Positions 411-9,649 of a DNA stretch of 64,000 nucleotides are shown here, in pieces. The notes beneath the pieces were generated by a model. That model did no database searches. It was not told the origin of the DNA and saw nothing but the letters and a program-made list of their open reading frames with translations. The stretch spans positions 15,376,001 through 15,440,000 of the forward strand of contig CM022678.1 of the NCBI GenBank assembly GCA_012295275.1, given 5' to 3'. Each line of letters starts with the position of its first letter. Within the stretch, counting starts at the first letter, position 1. A program made the translations under genes and the position numbers. This DNA comes from Chrysomallon squamiferum (Eukaryota > Animalia > Mollusca).

Positions 411-599
411 TTCAGCTGAAAAATAAACACACTCTATATTTATTTATTTTTGATTAAAAACAAATAAAAACAATAAAAACAAAAAACAAAACAACAAATC
501 GCTGCTAACAAAGCTTTCGCATCTGGGAAATACCAACACACAAATACTTAGAACCAGATAAAATAATCGAGTTTGAAATTCATGATTACCCGCTGGAAA

Positions 600-633
<34 letters not shown>

Positions 634-895
634 TTTATATTTTAGAAATAAACAAATAAAAAATCAATAAAATAAAATTAACTTAAATTAAAAAAAAAAA
701 AAACACATAATTATTGAAAAATGTATTACTTGGATATCGTAGTATTTACTGAAGTATGTATCAATCTTTAACTGTAATAATAACAATAATTGTTTAAAAA
801 ATATAGAATAATTTAAACATACCTGATAGTTTCGTTTGTAACGCCAATCATTTAAACAAATGTCTTTAATGCTTGAAATCGCGAAAATTGTTTTA

Positions 896-924
896 TTTAT
901 ATACAGCCGAGATGGGGAATTTCC
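896..924 (-). promoter_or_regulatory. Putative promoter of gene A: TATA box plus kappaB (Rel/NF-kB) site
   Basis: TATATAAA on the minus strand at 896-903. GGGGAATTTCC at 914-924 fits the kappaB consensus GGGRNWYYCC. A short non-coding first exon would end at the donor at 823. Confidence 0.55.
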
Positions 925-1417: not shown

Positions 1418-3003
1418 TAAGTTTATTATGATCATGATTTTAATTATCATTATAATTATATTCCTCCTTATATTTATATATATATAACTACGTAATTATC
1501 CGGGCTGTGTATTACAGAACCACTCTCGTCAGCTGTTGTGGGGTGTGCGTGTGTTTAGTGATATCTTTATTTTGTGTCTGAATTAGTAAGCGTGTAAAGT
1601 TCTCAGTATCATCACATCAAAATCATTCTGTGAGTGCTATATTAGAAGTTGTGAGTAGGAAAGCACGTGGTCTGAGAAATAAACAGCGTGATGCTGACTG
1701 CGATTTAACGTCTGTTTAAGACGACATGTAAAAAAAAAATAAAGAAATAAAGATTTCGATTATCGAGATTGATTAATAAAAAATGTAATATTGGAATTAC
1801 TCAAAGCCATTATAATATAATATAATATAATATAATATAATATAATATAATATAATAAATCAGTAAAGCAGTAGACAGACAGAGAGATAAATAAATAAAT
1901 AAGCATAAACAAGATGAAAAAAAAAAAAAAAAAAAAAAAAATGAGAGAAATAACATTTAAAAATATGAAACAAATAAAAATCAAAAAATCAAATGAAAAA
2001 AAAAATGAAAGAAAATTAATTTAAAAAACGAAAGAAAATTAATAAAGAAATGAAAGAAAATAAATGAAAAGAAAGAAAGAAAAGGAAAAGAATGAAGAAG
2101 TGAAACGTAAATAAAAAAGTTTATTAATGAAAATTACGCAATGTTGACACTCGTGATCATTCATTGGAAAAAGGTGGGGCAGAAAGATAAACTGGCAACG
2201 TGCCAAGCGGATTAATGCACTCGCTAAATGGAAAGTTTTGTTTGATCACATGTTAATCCTAATATTTATGTATTTAGAACACTTCACATATCCGGGAATA
2301 GTTATTAATCGCAGCGTGATTATTTCTCAAAAGTTTATTACTATTTTTCATGGAAAATGATATGTTTTCTTATTGACTTTTTGTCTGAAACGTCCGCATT
2401 CATTGTATGAAACTAATTACACTGTCTGCGTTCAGTTGTAACCAAACACACACGCATGTACGCACAGACATTGGATTCGCGCTAAGTCAGTGATCGTTTC
2501 TGAAAACTGGCTATTTTTAGAACTCACAGCGTCACCTGATGCATTCAACACAATGATGTACTAGACTGTACTGATAAAGACGATTATAAACGCTTTGAAA
2601 TTTAATCTCTCCTAGACAGAACTTGTTTTTAATTATTATTATTTTCCTTTTCTTCTTTCCTTTTTTTCTTATTCCCCCCCCTCACTTAATAAAAATATGA
2701 TACGAAATTTTATGTAAATTTCATTCATTAATAAAAACTTCTCCTTATAATTTCAGTGGTGATGTTTGTTGTTTCACGTGTTTGCATGGTACGCTAAAGA
2801 ATTCTTGAGAAAATTTATTTTAAAAACCAGCTCACGCACTGAAAAGTCAGCTGATGTTCAGAGAGAAAACAAAACATTACGTCATCAAAAAAAGAAAAAA
2901 TTCCCGTGAACTCACGCAGTACATTTCTTCAAGGAGACTGGATAATAAGAAAGTGGTGTGATTTTTTATTTCATCAGCTTTTCTATTTCCTTGTTTTCAA
3001 TAA

Positions 3004-3045
<42 letters not shown>

Positions 3046-3268
3046 TAATAATATAGCCTTCTCTCTCTGACGCATACACGCACACACACACAGTACACGT
3101 ATATATATCTATATATATATACATATATATAATTATATTATACACTTGGTATGGTAACCAGACAATTATACAAAACAACAACAATAAAAAAAAAAAATAA
3201 TAATAATTTGTAAACCCTTCACTGTAGTGCATCTAATTTAAATATTTTTATAAACGTTCATGCAGGCA

Positions 3269-3405
3269 GGGAATTCCCCTAATTAAGCTGTTATCATTCA
3301 GTGGAAATTTACTACAACTGGTTTTCCCAGTTTTGTCAATGTTATAAATTCTAAGGGTAACTGAAAACTCCTAGTATAATCTTCAACAGTGTTTTGCTTT
3401 CAGAG
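3269..3405 (+). promoter_or_regulatory. Putative promoter and non-coding exon 1 of gene B, with a kappaB cluster
   Basis: GGGAATTCCCC 3269-3279, GGAAATTTAC 3303-3312, GGTTTTCCC 3320-3328, TATAAA 3343-3348, donor gag|gtaagg at 3405/3406. The intron ends at ttttag 3830. Confidence 0.55.
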
Positions 3406-3726
3406 GTAAGGTTTTGTTTTTCGTATTACTTTTATTATTATTTAATTTTAATTTTAATTTAATTTAATTTAATTTAATTTTTATTTTATCTTATTTTATT
3501 TTTGTTTCTTTATTTCATTACTTTTTTTATAATTTATTTATTTATTTATTTATTTACTGACTTATTTTAATTTCGTTTATTAGAAGTGAATGTTAAAACT
3601 GCATATCGTATTAACTATATAGTGCAGAGTTATTGAACGAATAGGATTCAAATCGAAATTTATATTTTTTAATATTTGCAGAAACAAATAGGTAGATGAG
3701 ATTAGTTATTACAACGGATCAATATT

Positions 3727-3783
<57 letters not shown>

Positions 3784-3838
3784 CAATATTAGAAAAATGT
3801 TTTGTTTTAATGGGATTGTATTAATTTTAGAAACCGCG

Positions 3839-4840
3839 ATGAGTTTCCTGTGTAACAGTACCTACAGAAGTACAAACAAAGATGGCGCTGCTTACAGCGT
3901 AGATTATGAGGACTCCTCGTGGAGAAAGGGCAGAAGGAAGAAGGTATATGTGGGAATTGCCCGAGGTCAAGGACCTCTTAACGCAGAGAAAGTTTGTGTT
4001 AAAGTGAGGCGCTCTGGGAAATGGACACACTGTGAAAGCGAGGCTGAAGTCAACAAATGTAAAATCGCTCAGAAATACGCCACGCAGTTTAACAAACTTT
4101 TCAATAAGACACGAGTTACCGTTCTTGTTCCTTTCTCCGCTAAAGTGAGCGATGTGGCGTTGCTGCACACGGTGAAACGACGGCATCGTTCTCTCAGCGA
4201 AGGAGACTTGGTCCTGTTCGAACCCAAAATCGACAAGCATTTCAAAGCTCTCGTCAGACGAAACGGCGAAGTCATTAACGACGTCGATGACAACGTTCTG
4301 GAAGCTTTCGTACATTTCACGTATCACGTGAGCGGAGGCGCGTGCGTGGTGTGCGGTCTTCAGGGAGTTATGTCACGTGACTTAAAAGAAATTCTAATTT
4401 CCGGGCCGACGGTTCACTCGGTTGGACATGACTACGGAGAGCTGGATGGAGGACGTGACGGCATCGACGAAGTCTTTAGAAACCACAGCTGCAACGACAT
4501 GTGTGAAAACTGGTCATTACCTGACGACGACATCCACCTCAAAGAACACAGCGATGTACGACTGCAGCCAACAGCTCCTCCAGAATACGACGAAATGTTT
4601 CAAATGGATGACATCGAAAAACCTGTTCAGACAGAGCCAAAGGAACAAGCATTTCCCGGGTTTTTCTCAGAATATTTTGATTATCACATGATCTGGTACA
4701 GCGATACGTCATCACCCCCACCGTATACAGAACAGCCAATGAGTTTTTCACTTCCTGATCCAGAATGTTTCCATGGTAAAGTTTACAGAAGTTGTCATGA
4801 CAACACAGAATCATATACATTTGTTCCTTACAGATATTAA
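3839..4840 (+). CDS. Alpha-kinase-fold protein B (predicted pseudokinase) with C-terminal PTAP/PPxY motifs, 333 aa, single coding exon
   Basis: Alpha-kinase (eEF2K/TRPM7/MHCK-type) motifs: VCVK lysine, AFVHFTY..S, (D->G)LQGV, (TDP->SGP), Zn-finger tail H-x-CN-x-x-C. The likely start is MSFLC (ATG 3839), just after acceptor ttttag 3830. The ORF-track start at 3797 is intronic. Confidence 0.9.
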   Translation: MSFLCNSTYRSTNKDGAAYSVDYEDSSWRKGRRKKVYVGIARGQGPLNAEKVCVKVRRSGKWTHCESEAEVNKCKIAQKYATQFNKLFNKTRVTVLVPFSAKVSDVALLHTVKRRHRSLSEGDLVLFEPKIDKHFKALVRRNGEVINDVDDNVLEAFVHFTYHVSGGACVVCGLQGVMSRDLKEILISGPTVHSVGHDYGELDGGRDGIDEVFRNHSCNDMCENWSLPDDDIHLKEHSDVRLQPTAPPEYDEMFQMDDIEKPVQTEPKEQAFPGFFSEYFDYHMIWYSDTSSPPPYTEQPMSFSLPDPECFHGKVYRSCHDNTESYTFVPYRY

Positions 4841-4944
4841 AAAAGAACGTAAAGATAAACAACACTGAATGACGTGTACATAAATCTGTATAAAGATATG
4901 TATAATAAAAACAGCTATGAGAATATCTGTGAGTTTGTTTGTCT

Positions 4945-6040
4945 GTCTCTCTTTCTTTTTCTCCATCCTTCTTTCTATTTTCACCTTATTCCCACTCTGT
5001 CAATCACTCTCTTTGTTTTCATTCCCTCCATTCCCTTCGTTCCTTTTTTCTCTCTCTCCCCTTCCTCTCTTTCTTTTTTTTCTCTCTCTCTCCTCTCTTT
5101 TTTTCTTTTTTTTCTATCTCCCTCCCTTTCTTTCTTTTTTTCTCTCCTCCCTCTCTTTCTTTCTTTTTCTATCTCCCTCCCTCTCTTTCTTTCTTTTTTT
5201 TCTCCTCCCTCTTTTTCTTTCTTTTTCTCTCTCTCCCCTCTTTCTTTCTTTTTTTTTCTCTCTCCTCCCTCTCTTTTTTTTTTTCTATCTCCCCTCCCTC
5301 TCTTTCTTTTTTTTTTCTCTCTCTCTCTCTTTTTTTTTTTCTCTCCTTCTTTCTTTCTTTTTTTTCTCTCTCCTCCCTCTTTCTTTTTTTTCTTTTTCTC
5401 TCCTCTCCTCTCTTTCTTTCTTTTTTTCTCTCTCCTTTCTTTCTTTTTTTTTTTCTCTCTCCCTCCCTCTCTTTCTTTCTTTTTCTCTCCTCCTCCTCTC
5501 TTTCTTCTTTTTTTTTCTCTCTCCCTCTCCTTCTCTTTCTTTTTTTCTCCTACCTCTATCTTTCTTTTTCTCTCTTTCTCTTTTTTCTTTTTTCTCTCTC
5601 CCTCTCTTTCTTTCCTCCTTTCTTTCTTTTTTTCTCTCTCCTCCCCTCTTTCTTTTTTTTTTTTCTCTCTCCTCTCTTTCTTTTTTTTTTTTCTCCTCTC
5701 TTTCTTTCTTTCTCCCCCTCCCTTTCTTTTTTCCCTCTTTCTTTCTTTTCCTCCTCCTCTCTTTCCTCTCCTCTCTTTCTTTCTTTTTCTCTCTTCCTCT
5801 CTTTCTTTCTTTTTTTCTTCTTCCCTCCTCTCTTTTTTCTTTTTTTTTTTCTCCCCTCCCTCTCTTTCTTTCTTTTTCTCTCTTTCTTTTTCTCTCTCTT
5901 CCCTCTCTTTCTTTTTTTTTCTCCCTTCTTTCTTTCTTTTTTCTCCATCTTCCCTCCTCTCTTTCTTTCTTTTTCTCTCTCTTCCTCCCTCTCTTTCTTT
6001 TTCTTCTCTCTTCCCCTTCCTGTCTTTCCTTCTTTTTCCT
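4945..6040. repeat. About 1.1 kb polypyrimidine (C/T) low-complexity tract
   Basis: Almost only C and T; it generates the spurious F/S/L and K/R/E ORFs. Confidence 0.9.
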
Positions 6041-6601
6041 CGCTAATATAATTATTATTGCCATAAATAACAAAAAATATATATTATTTATTGTGTTGTT
6101 TATTTGTTTATTTACTGTTCAGTGTATGCTTATAAAAATACTCAGTTGCTATTTTAAAATTCTTCCGTGGTTTAGTTTCAGAAGGTCAGTGACGAGTTAA
6201 ACAAACAAAGTGTACTTCATTATTGCGGATTTTATAAACTTTGTCTGACATACTAAAAAATCACCTGACGAGTTATTTTGGTAGCCACGTTACAGAATTC
6301 TTGAGATTTTTTTTTTTTAAATGCAGCTCACAAACTAAAAGTCAGCTGATTGTGGCAGTGAAAAATAGTGAATTATGTCAACAATCAGAGAAGAAATTCC
6401 CGTTAGTACAAAACGACGCAGTAAATGTTTTCAAGGAAACTGGTTGATGAGAAGTAGTGTAAATATGTAACTTTATATATTCTGTGTCTGACTCGTGTTT
6501 TCTATTTCTTATTTATAGTAATGAACATGATATGGTCTTGATGATGATGATGATGATGATAATAATAATAATAATATATTACATATCCCCTCTCTCAGTT
6601 T

Positions 6602-6654
<53 letters not shown>

Positions 6655-6744
6655 CACGTATTAAATATGTACTGAAACAAATATGCGTGCATAAAAAATA
6701 ACACATTTTCTAGGAAACTGAAGTATGCAATATATTTATATATG

Positions 6745-6778
<34 letters not shown>

Positions 6779-6783
6779 TGTAT

Positions 6784-6841
6784 GGAGGCGCGTGCGTTGT
6801 GTGCGGTCTTCAGGGTGTTATGTCATGTGAATTAAAAGAAA
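6784..6841 (+). pseudogene. 58-bp fragment of the alpha-kinase coding exon embedded in a (TATG)n microsatellite
   Basis: ggaggcgcgtgcgttgtgtgcggtcttcagggtgttatgtcatgtgaattaaaagaaa is nearly identical to 9143-9200 (GGACVVCGLQGVMS..LKE), with tatg repeats on both sides. Confidence 0.85.
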
Positions 6842-6842
6842 A

Positions 6843-6875
<33 letters not shown>

Positions 6876-6890
6876 ATGTACACACATACA

Positions 6891-6943
<53 letters not shown>

Positions 6944-7916
6944 TTTAAATACTTCGTAACCAGATAAATATACACAAAACCAGTTAAATAAAAGTTATAA
7001 CTACTGGGCAGCTGAATATTCCTGACTAATATTTCGATATTACAATAAAAAGAAAATAATACTTGTGAGAGAAAAAGGAAATCGTGTAACCTGGTCACTG
7101 GTTGCACGTGTTGTGTGTTAAGGCAGACACATTACAACAACACAAGACACGGTTGAGCGCGTTACTAATGACCTGCCGTGTACCTTGTGTAACACACGCA
7201 GTAAATAATGGAACTGACTGGGACAACTAAATCCAGAACACAGAACAAAATTATATAAAATAAGATTTATTTATAGACTTATTAACAGATTTTTATTTGT
7301 AGATTTATTAATTGCATTTACCCGACTATAATTAGGCTCTCGCTGTTGTTGTATGAAATGAGTAGATGTAAGAAAACACTGTAACTAGGTGCAATATAAA
7401 ACAACACTGTGGTAAAGTCAGTGGGGCTAATTGATTAACACATAGTTGTTTCAATGTAGAGGTAGCCTGCTGAACAGACTGGACTAATGTAGCAGGGGTG
7501 AACGGGTTACATTATGTGAACCAGTAAAGAGTTTTGTCTATCAAATGAAATGTCTGCATTACTGGATGTCTGTCTTTTGGAAAGGAACCCACTGTAATAT
7601 ATCCAATGTGTATATTTTAAAAATACTACAATTAATAAAATGTTCATAAGATTTTCATTCAGTTTGTAATGCTTTTCTGTTAGTTTCTTTTTTTAATTTT
7701 TAATTTTAATTTATTTGATAATATTACAGGCTCTAATTCACATATTATATTTCTGAATTTATATATTATGAATATGCGTTACAGATTTTTATATCAAATC
7801 GATTGTGGACAGCAAACACGCTACAATATAACTGACTTTTCATGCGTCATTAGATATCTGTGGTGGAATAATTACTGGTCTTGACCTTTCAATGAAATGT
7901 AATTGTGTGTAGATCA

Positions 7917-8174
7917 GGGGATTCCCCTATGATATCATCTTTCTTGGGGAAATTTATTTATAGACCTGGATTTGTCCAGTTATATGAATGTTATAGTTAC
8001 GGGGCAACTGAAAAATTCTAAAACTAATGTTTCAACATTCCTGTACTGGAGCCCGTCCCTGGGGATTCAGAGATCGGACCCGAGGCATGCGTGTCTGATC
8101 GTACTTCTGGATGTGTGTACGTAAAAAGGGTTCTGATACATATAATCCTTTAATAGTGTTTTCTCCTCTCTGAG
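7917..8174 (+). promoter_or_regulatory. Putative promoter and non-coding exon 1 of gene C, with kappaB sites
   Basis: Near-palindromic GGGGATTCCCC at 7917-7927 and GGGGAAATTT at about 7946-7955. The region is homologous to 3269-3405 and has donor gag|gtaaga at 8174/8175. It also carries an extra ~110-120 bp GC-richer segment (about 8022-8140) absent from copy B. Confidence 0.55.
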
Positions 8175-8507
8175 GTAAGATCTTGTCTTTCATATAACTT
8201 TATTTTTATTTATTTTTTAAATGTTTTGTACATTTTTATTATGCTTTTATTTTTACTTTTATTTTGATTTTGTTTTTTGTGTTTATTTTTATTTTTATTT
8301 ATATTTTTAAATTTTTTAATTTAATTTAATTTAATTTGTTTAAATTACGTTTATTAGTAGTGCATGTTAAAATAGCATTTAGTATTAACTGTATCTGACA
8401 ATTCATGGTTCTTTAATTTATATTTTTAAATACATGATGTATATAAATAGCAATATTATACCTGACGATAGTTAAATAAGTATAGTTATCAGAACTAACA
8501 TATATAT

Positions 8508-8592
<85 letters not shown>

Positions 8593-8647
8593 CAAAATGA
8601 GAGAAATGTTTTGTTATAATGGGATTGTATTAATTTTAGAATTTGCG

Positions 8648-9649
8648 ATGAGTTTCCTGTGTAACAGTACCTACAGAAGTACAAACAAAGATGGCGCTGC
8701 TTACAGCGTAGATTATGAGGACTCCTCATGGAGAAAGGGCAGAAGGAAGAAGGTATATGTGGGAATTGCCAGAGGTCAAGGACCTCTTAACGCAGAGAAA
8801 GTTTGTGTTAAGGTGAGGCGCTCTGGGAAATGGACACACTGTGAAAGTGAGGCTGAAGTCAACAAATGTAAAATCGCTCAGAAATACGCCACGCAGTTTA
8901 ACAAACTTTTCAATAAGACACGAGTTACCGTTCTTGTTCCTTTCTTCGCTAAAGTGTGCGATGTGGCGTTGCTGCACACGGTGAAACGACGGCATCGTTC
9001 TCTCAGCGAAGGAGACTTGGTCCTGTTCGAACCCAAAATCGACAAGCATTTCAAAGCTCTCGTCACACGAAACGGTGAAGTCATTAACGACGTTGATAAC
9101 AACGTTCTGGAAGCTTTCGTACATTTCACGTATCACGTGAGCGGAGGCGCGTGCGTGGTGTGCGGTCTTCAGGGTGTTATGTCACGTGACTTAAAAGAAA
9201 TTCTAATTTCCGGGCCGACGGTTCACTCGGTTGGACGTGACTATGGAGAGCTGGACGGAGGACGTGACGGCATCGACGAAGTCTTCAGAAACCACAGATG
9301 CAACGACATGTGTGAAAACTGGTCATTACCTGACGACGACATCCACCTCAAAGAACACAGCGATGTACGACTGCAGCCAACAGCTCCTCCAGAATACGAC
9401 GAAATATTTCAAATGGATGACATCGAAAAACCTGTTCAGGCTGAGCCAAACCAAAAAGCATTTCCCGGTTTTTTCTCAGAATATTTTGATTATCACATGA
9501 TCTGGTACAGTGATACGTCATCACCCCCACCGTATACAGAACAGCCAATGTGTTTTTCATTTCCTGATCCAGAATATTTCCATGGTAAAGTTTACAGAAG
9601 TTGTCATGACAGCACAGAATCATATACATTTGTTCCTTACAGATATTAA
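8648..9649 (+). CDS. Alpha-kinase-fold protein C (predicted pseudokinase), tandem duplicate of B, 333 aa
   Basis: About 15 amino-acid differences from B by hand comparison. Same GLQG/SGP substitutions, PTAPPEY and PPPY. Acceptor ttttag at 8639, ATG at 8648. Confidence 0.9.
   Translation: MSFLCNSTYRSTNKDGAAYSVDYEDSSWRKGRRKKVYVGIARGQGPLNAEKVCVKVRRSGKWTHCESEAEVNKCKIAQKYATQFNKLFNKTRVTVLVPFFAKVCDVALLHTVKRRHRSLSEGDLVLFEPKIDKHFKALVTRNGEVINDVDNNVLEAFVHFTYHVSGGACVVCGLQGVMSRDLKEILISGPTVHSVGRDYGELDGGRDGIDEVFRNHRCNDMCENWSLPDDDIHLKEHSDVRLQPTAPPEYDEIFQMDDIEKPVQAEPNQKAFPGFFSEYFDYHMIWYSDTSSPPPYTEQPMCFSFPDPEYFHGKVYRSCHDSTESYTFVPYRY

Follow-up and report, generated by a model that had tools for sequence, protein, structure and literature searches.

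Tandem genes encoding an alpha-kinase fold with a motif-bearing tail

A stretch of 64,000 nucleotides from Chrysomallon squamiferum (assembly GCA_012295275.1, contig CM022678.1, positions 15,376,001 to 15,440,000; hereafter the window) was found to be AT-rich animal DNA, rich in microsatellites, carrying two complete genes, A and B, and the start of a third, diverged paralog, gene C (Table 1). Genes A and B each encode an alpha-kinase fold without either of its catalytic aspartates (Asp), followed by an acidic tail with PTAP and PPxY motifs. Their proteins are 95.5% identical and both reading frames are intact. Both matched the Pfam family PF02816 (E 1.2e-25 for A and 4.6e-26 for B, at 91-92 bits against a gathering cut-off of 21.3), and a Pfam scan gave no further significant family in A or B, nor in any of the longer homologs scanned (30/30).

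Gene C, which starts at position 410 of the minus strand in head-to-head orientation and whose catalytic loop and tail lie beyond the window, is 34% identical to A and matched PF02816 with E 2.5e-6. Its nearest match is the homolog P0031 (51% over 130 amino acids), and as P0031 lacks both Asp and carries PSAP, PPPY and PPSY, gene C is probably of the A/B kind. Common to the three genes is a layout of a strict kappaB (kB) consensus site, a short untranslated exon, a GT-AG intron of 407-465 bp and an ATG set 5-8 bases into exon 2, predicted in the case of A and C. An earlier, sequence-only reading of the window had described gene C as a diverged head-to-head paralog with its own kB site, as was borne out by the Pfam match, by the identity to A and by a strict site about 90 bp before the predicted donor.

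Table 1. Positions of the alpha-kinase genes, their motifs and associated elements within the window (CDS, coding sequence; UTR, untranslated region; aa, amino acids)
Feature	Position	Strand	Details
Gene A CDS	3839..4840	+	single coding exon, 333 aa: alpha-kinase fold (about residues 1-228) and acidic, mostly disordered tail
Gene A Gly173 replacing first catalytic Asp (DxQG; MHCK-A D756 position)	4355..4357	+	alignments
Gene A Gly189 replacing second catalytic Asp (TDP; MHCK-A D766 position)	4403..4405	+	alignments
Gene A overlapping PTAP / PPEY (residues 244-250)	4568..4588	+	motif scan, shuffling
Gene A PPPY (residues 293-296)	4715..4726	+	motif scan
kB consensus site, gene A	3269..3279	.	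126 bp upstream of predicted first-exon donor
Gene A predicted 5' UTR intron, GT..AG	3406..3830	+	homology to gene B; sequence only, no RNA support
Gene B CDS	8648..9649	+	333 aa; active-site losses and motifs as in A; 28 nucleotide differences from A
Gene B PTAP / PPEY	9377..9397	+	motif scan
Gene B PPPY	9524..9535	+	motif scan
kB consensus site, gene B	7917..7927	.	247 bp upstream of first-exon donor, within block homologous to A promoter
Gene B 5' UTR intron, GT..AG	8175..8639	+	RNA contig (run X2) links the sequence of 8150-8174 with that from 8640 onwards
Gene C, diverged paralog, first 136 codons	3..410	-	leaves window before catalytic loop
Gene C predicted 5' UTR intron, GT..AG	416..822	-	sequence only, no RNA support
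kB consensus site, gene C	914..924	.	about 90 bp upstream of predicted donor; then, on minus strand, TATATAAA
Lone CDS fragment (codons 166-184), 57-58 bp	6784..6841	+	flanked by microsatellites

The kinase domain has lost both catalytic aspartates

A structure model built from 146 aligned sequences was confident over residues 11-230 (predicted local distance difference test, pLDDT, mostly >90) and of low confidence in the tail; folding without an alignment gave a pLDDT of 38.8 and was unusable. The model matched MHCK-A (3lmh) with a Z score of 21.8 and a root-mean-square deviation of 2.3 Å over 204 aligned residues, and the top 23 structural matches were all alpha-kinases, with the next entry at Z 9.1. 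Neither an arrestin fold nor a LITAF domain was found in A or B by Pfam scan or structure match, and the proteins belong to the alpha-kinase fold family and to neither of these adaptor families. The fold begins near residue 5, and in the spliced RNA contig the ATG comes after the splice acceptor; an N-terminal vWA or heptose-sensing domain, as in vwkA or ALPK1, was not found in A and B, each of which is a bare kinase domain.

The two catalytic aspartates (D1767 and D1777 of TRPM7; D756 and D766 of MHCK-A) are absent from A and B, which have Gly173 and Gly189 instead. Gly173 (VCGLQG) aligned to the Asp of DxQG in EhAK1, TRPM7, ALPK1 and eEF2K, and Gly189 (ISGP) to the Asp of TDP in EhAK1, ALPK1 and eEF2K, the TRPM7 row being shifted at this second site; in the family profile the second position aligned to the Ala of the MHCK-A D766A entry, 3lmi. 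According to a family review, alpha-kinases have three invariant catalytic residues, these two aspartates and a lysine (PMC2827801), D766 of MHCK-A has been termed catalytically essential (PMC4876393), and the structure entries for MHCK-A D756A and D766A are titled as inactive but ATP-bound.

Other active-site positions have changed too. In the Asp-intact branch of the homologs (see below) D173 is conserved at 96%, D189 at 96%, N141 at 100%, K137 at 87% and R34 at 82%, where the query has G, G, R, A and K respectively. The query retains K55 (the invariant lysine of beta-strand 3), E70, E128, Q175 and D203 along with four zinc ligands, H159, H216, C218 and C222, which form a His-His-Cys-Cys site invariant in the homolog alignment. 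Because both Asp are Gly and R34, K137 and N141 are also replaced, the A and B kinase domains are, judged by their residues, very likely to be without phosphotransfer activity; they may still bind nucleotide.

An acidic tail with overlapping PTAP and PPxY motifs

Both A and B carry a PTAP at residues 244-247 that overlaps a PPEY at 247-250, and a PPPY at 293-296, within a tail (residues 229-333) that has a net charge of -14 and is mostly of low confidence in the model. When the query tail was shuffled 200,000 times, a PSAP with two PPxY motifs arose with a probability of 4e-5. The sequence-only reading had reported this architecture in both complete genes, an alpha-kinase fold without either catalytic Asp and an acidic tail with PTAPPEY and a second PPPY, and each part of that description was confirmed; the link that it drew to ALPK1 stood as a family resemblance through the shared fold and fell as a closer relation, A and B being bare kinase domains with no sensor domain.

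A viral origin of the motifs was considered and is unsupported: none of 47 candidates in the viral contigs scanned was a relative, no viral structure matched the model at E <= 0.001, and a Gag_p6 match (E 0.16) was below threshold.

Asp loss and motif tails are shared across one branch of the family

At E <= 0.001 a HMMER scan gave 1478 representatives. The analysis took the best 150 and aligned 145 of them, leaving out five longer than 730 amino acids (one with both motifs, one with a distant PPEY and three with neither). A word-based homolog search with a single protein found nothing among 776 candidates, the sequences themselves had no exact match in the collection searched, and a metagenome scan for relatives gave one locus of 97 candidates, an unrelated Asp-intact kinase. 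Both Asp were present in 52 of the 145 aligned homologs, one in 18 and neither in 75, and over these three classes P[ST]AP was found after the kinase domain in 3/52, 6/18 and 36/75, and PPxY in 4/52, 7/18 and 39/75. Among the 93 homologs missing at least one Asp, P[ST]AP occurred in 42 (shuffled tails, mean 0.9, maximum 4 in 2000), PPxY in 46 (3.9 in shuffled tails) and both motifs together in 31 (shuffle mean 0.06, maximum 2). The permuted controls PA[ST]P, P[ST]PA and AP[ST]P occurred 0 times in the same 93, with PPxF found 6 times and PPxW 0 times. Homologs sharing the Asp loss and the motif tails are about 25-35% identical, and the motifs stand as conserved islands within otherwise poorly alignable tails.

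A kinase-only tree of 131 rows (129 homologs with A and B, built after exclusion of 16 partial homologs and of the two Asp motifs; midpoint-rooted) split into two branches with a Shimodaira-Hasegawa-like approximate likelihood ratio test (SH-aLRT) value of 97, and FastTree gave the same split. The Asp-intact branch comprises 46 homologs, 43 of them with both Asp and none with a motif in 2,419 tail residues, where about 10 PSAP would be expected at the rate of the other branch. The motif branch comprises 85 rows (83 homologs with A and B), and only 5 of its 83 homologs have both Asp, while PSAP is present in 38, PPxY in 42, both in 28 and either in 52; PSAP precedes PPxY in 26 of the 28 double-motif proteins. 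Residues D203 (100%), K/R55 (96%), E128 (93%), H193 (98%) and S194 (100%) are conserved in this branch, and position 175 is Lys in 34%. As read from these alignments, the Asp loss with a predicted PSAP/PPxY docking tail is a family trait of an old branch. Repeated co-evolution of the two characters was also considered and had no support in an independent-contrast test, leaving one inheritance. Four homologs were unusual in architecture: among P0022, P0145, P0034 and P0067, two carry three tandem alpha-kinase domains, while in the other two a degenerate kinase domain at the N-terminus precedes 1300-3000 residues that match no Pfam family.

Twenty representatives were looked up, nine clusters of which had an organism name, and two profile searches added more, some being placed by similarity and shared Asp loss and not on the tree. 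The degenerate type was found in nine gastropod genera (Patella, Haliotis, Gigantopelta, Arion, Nucella, Elysia, Plakobranchus, Bradybaena and Candidula) and six bivalve genera (Mizuhopecten, Pecten, Argopecten, Ylistrum, Pinctada and Saccostrea), and the sole named member of the Asp-intact branch is from the brachiopod Lingula. The family is thus seen in molluscs among named records, from which a restriction to molluscs does not follow, most records bearing no name. Tandem arrays in other molluscs are indicated by neighbouring locus tags (Patella, Haliotis) and by four proteins of Mizuhopecten that apparently share a contig. Orthologs with a locus name include LOC124138542 and LOC124138545 of Haliotis and LOC110466759 and LOC110466764 of Mizuhopecten. 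Members are labelled in databases as uncharacterised, 'alpha-protein kinase vwkA-like' or 'alpha-protein kinase 1-like', and the ESM Atlas gave 'alpha-kinase' only, with mollusc clusters among the top matches.

A Met-Gly start, a possible myristoylation signal, is present in 26/69 motif-branch relatives and 16/30 Asp-intact-branch relatives, and its occurrence in both branches hints that their common ancestor may have been membrane-anchored. A and B have no Gly2 and have Cys5. At the N-terminus of gene C (405-410 region) and of its relative P0031, residues 6-8 are all cysteine and may form a lipid-anchor site in place of Met-Gly.

A and B are a true duplication under purifying selection

The coding sequences of A and B differ at 28/1002 bases, whereas their introns show 337 identities, 77 mismatches and 62 gaps and their promoters 98, 35 and 16. 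As introns and promoters diverge far more than coding sequence, a haplotype artefact was ruled out and A and B are a true duplication. In the kinase domain the ratio of non-synonymous to synonymous substitution rates (dN/dS) is 0.16 (10 synonymous and 6 non-synonymous changes), indicating purifying selection. Contigs from three RNA runs of one study, on unchallenged animals, span parts of the coding sequence at low depth, and one contig, aligned to A, has a loose end that joins 8150-8174 to the letters from 8640, which is spliced B. Pseudogene status was ruled out by the intact frames, the kinase-domain dN/dS and the spliced RNA.

Between the two genes, the lone coding fragment at 6784-6841 is possibly the remnant of a fourth copy; run X4 contains a repeat-flanked piece that resembles it.

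kB sites precede the first exons of all three paralogs

The strict kB consensus gave 9 matches at 4 distinct places in the 64 kb (915, 3269, 7917 and 12242), compared to a mean of 0.52 matches and a maximum of 4 in the shuffled window. In a repeat-masked Markov control the distinct sites averaged 0.76, with a maximum of 4 in 100, against the 4 observed, and a relaxed pattern was not enriched in the window (4 versus 3.3 expected). The strict-site count by itself is only modestly high, and position is the stronger evidence. Each of the three first-exon donors has one of the four strict sites in the 300 bp preceding it (at about 90, 126 and 247 bp), with a binomial probability of 4e-5, or 6e-4 with the duplicated A and B counted once, the 300-bp span having been set once the sites had been seen. 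Gene C, although no more than 34% identical to A, has its site in a corresponding position, which speaks for selection on the kB site, and judged by site placement, control of these genes by NF-kB appears moderately likely. Sites close to the putative start of transcription had been proposed from the sequence; the closeness holds for all three first-exon donors, the start itself being inferred.

No alpha-kinase gene lies close to the fourth strict site (12242-12251). Upstream of A and B, a non-coding block with 69% identity between its two copies (2791-3092 and 6287-6625) and a kB-like half site at 2896 and 6392 is a candidate shared enhancer. ACTGAAA, which we take to resemble an IRF half site, occurs at the same place in the A and B promoters (3360 and 8007) and is common in this AT-rich DNA. 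Run X4 has a 14-base insertion right before the gene A kB site (at 3265), with no difference listed in the site itself.

A proposed adaptor function for A and B

P(S/T)AP is reported to bind TSG101 and PPxY to bind NEDD4-like HECT ligases, the pair being known as viral late domains (PMC2958808). By analogy, it is quite likely that the A and B tails would bind the TSG101-UEV domain and NEDD4-type WW domains. The joining of a folded dead domain to a flexible two-motif tail fits a role as adaptors that deliver a partner, bound by the dead kinase domain, to ubiquitination and to sorting in endosomes or release in vesicles, possibly switched by NF-kB, and we put the probability of this at about 0.55. 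The dead kinase domain would hold a partner, the tail motifs would recruit a NEDD4-type ubiquitin ligase together with TSG101 (part of ESCRT-I, an endosomal sorting complex), and the partner would be ubiquitinated and then sorted to endosomes or exported in vesicles. The least supported element is that the kinase domain binds cargo, which would most plausibly be a substrate or partner of active sister kinases.

Known proteins offer partial parallels. The PPxY motifs of the alpha-arrestin ARRDC1 bind NEDD4-type ligases. Much as A and B are predicted to have, ARRDC1 has a folded non-enzymatic domain and then a C-terminal tail, whose PSAP is reported to recruit TSG101-UEV and release microvesicles (PMC9105457), although the folded domain here is an alpha-kinase and not an arrestin, and the motifs here are predicted docking sites. 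In LITAF/SIMPLE, P(S/T)AP and PPxY motifs overlap within a flexible stretch adjoining its folded domain (PMC5142333), comparable to PTAPPEY here, and LITAF is reported to bind zinc (PMC5095921), as the zinc site of the A/B kinase domain is predicted to do; its motifs are however N-terminal and accompany a membrane-anchoring LITAF domain, whereas those of A and B are C-terminal to a kinase fold with no evident anchor. Active alpha-kinases (MHCK-A, EhAK1, eEF2K, TRPM7, ALPK1 and the stand-alone 'vwkA-like' proteins) share the fold, zinc site, lysine and hinge glutamate with A and B, which differ in having lost both catalytic Asp and, compared to ALPK1, in having no sugar-sensing domain. ALPK1 is described as an active sensor kinase signalling to NF-kB (PMC12236711) and is not an ortholog of A or B; an alpha-protein kinase of sponges, not assigned to a branch, is reported to rise on contact with microbes (PMC11229196). 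Viral late domains have the same PTAP and PPxY pair, but A and B are cellular, intron-containing genes with no relative in the viral contigs.

The inactivity of ALPK3 is reportedly disputed. In print its alpha-kinase domain is reported to be inactive and a scaffold, and is described as the first alpha-pseudokinase; unlike A and B, ALPK3, a muscle protein of vertebrates and large in size, retains Asp1774, its predicted catalytic residue, with four other residues changed, and no late-domain tail features in the passages available of that report (PMC9698156). No description of an alpha-kinase family with PSAP/PPxY motifs was found in the open-access literature, subscription papers and supplementary tables, where expression data may sit, being outside the search. 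The novelty suggested by the sequence-only reading therefore holds for the architecture within that literature, and not for an alpha-pseudokinase as such. The domain-motif combination is real, old and apparently undescribed, and is probably similar in its working to known PSAP/PPxY adaptors.

Several observations weigh against the adaptor proposal. The homolog search used the full-length query, which may slightly favour tails with similar motifs. The retention of K55, E128 and the invariant D203 leaves room for unusual chemistry. The association of Asp loss with the motifs amounts to one branch, with two well-supported independent pairs, neither differing in motif state. Within the motif branch 31/83 homologs have no motif (14/66 among tails of at least 30 amino acids), and in a bivalve sub-branch 9/10 members have none although their tails are 91-125 amino acids long; these other sub-branches appear from their sequences to have lost the motifs. 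Four Asp-intact members carry motifs, within a motif-bearing sub-branch of five, which shows that the tail can accompany a kinase with both Asp and may be older than the full Asp loss, an order that the midpoint root leaves unestablished. The A/B tail has a dN/dS of 0.69 on few changes (3 synonymous, 9 non-synonymous), and A and B have no evident membrane anchor as Gly2 is lacking. Since the RNA contigs mostly carry B letters at sites where the genes differ, the RNA supports expression of B and not of A. The sequence-only reading, which would have been refuted by motifs not conserved in orthologs or paralogs, is upheld in its core: both features are shared family-wide, far above shuffled and permuted controls, with the qualifications that their co-occurrence is confined to one branch and that some sub-branches are motif-free.

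The motifs could instead act on the protein itself, as a turnover or export signal towards lysosomes or extracellular vesicles (for example in mucus or shell-forming secretion) with no other cargo. ARRDC1 releases its own microvesicles through its PSAP (PMC9105457), Met-Gly starts are frequent, motif-less sub-branches persist, implying some use for the kinase domain even in the tail's absence, and a mussel gene annotated VwkA, with no branch assigned, is reported to be expressed in the larval shell field and up at low pH (PMC9283884); the fixed PSAP-then-PPxY order and its retention across gastropods and bivalves match dedicated adaptors, however, and we regard self-directed sorting as unlikely. 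It is quite unlikely that the dead domain serves as an allosteric or competitive regulator of active sister alpha-kinases, the tail then destroying the pair and ending the signal: an Asp-intact, motif-free sister branch exists (46 proteins, a brachiopod member, Met-Gly in 16/30) and in TRPM6/7 the alpha-kinase domains are reported to dimerise (PMC2827801), but there is no active paralog within the window.

An alternative in which the enzymes are not dead would have D203, with K55, E128 and a frequent Lys175, support an unusual nucleotide-dependent reaction or sensing that the tail targets to ESCRT sites. The near-invariance of D203, K/R55, E128, H193 and S194 in the motif branch, with Lys175 in 34%, and the ATP still bound by inactive MHCK-A mutants according to their entry titles would suit this, but the replacements are heterogeneous at 173 (G/N/D), 175 (Q/K/E) and 189 (T/N/V/D), as drift would give, and D203 is equally invariant in the active branch and may be structural, making such chemistry very unlikely. 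Most improbable, to our mind, is a decoy role, in which proteins induced by infection would sequester TSG101 and NEDD4 ligases and thereby hold back enveloped viruses as they bud. Viral late domains have this same pair of motifs (PMC2958808), kB sites precede all three paralogs and tandem, diversifying arrays occur in several molluscs, yet purifying selection on a conserved kinase fold is more than a decoy would call for, the viral scans gave no homolog, and signs of rapid adaptive change were not seen. A wider form of the adaptor proposal, which we consider doubtful, is an NF-kB-induced receptor-adaptor family derived from a membrane-linked alpha-kinase, in which dead, diversifying domains would recognise targets, microbial or from host signalling, and deliver these or themselves to ESCRT destruction or export, in competition with enveloped viruses; this would be an innate immune module without a vertebrate counterpart.

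For the alpha-kinases, a small family, a single pseudokinase has been published, and its status is disputed; here a whole expanded gastropod and bivalve branch, annotated by default as ordinary kinases, has lost its catalytic residues and carries a predicted ubiquitin-ESCRT docking tail. Should the motifs work as in ARRDC1 and LITAF, this would be a third protein fold recruited as a PSAP/PPxY adaptor, and if immune-induced, the genes would be candidate defence genes in farmed abalone, scallops and oysters.

Other features of the window

Scattered exons at 18.8-25 kb (plus strand) and 49.6-54.7 kb (minus strand), with motifs such as DYNDNRPIF and DIDDNPPIF, resemble cadherin repeats, and a Ser/Thr-rich exon lies at 33.5-34.1 kb. 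The region 36845-43500 consists of a 200-base N gap and then ~6.5 kb in which the GC content is roughly 10% and the strands are strongly skewed, probably satellite DNA.

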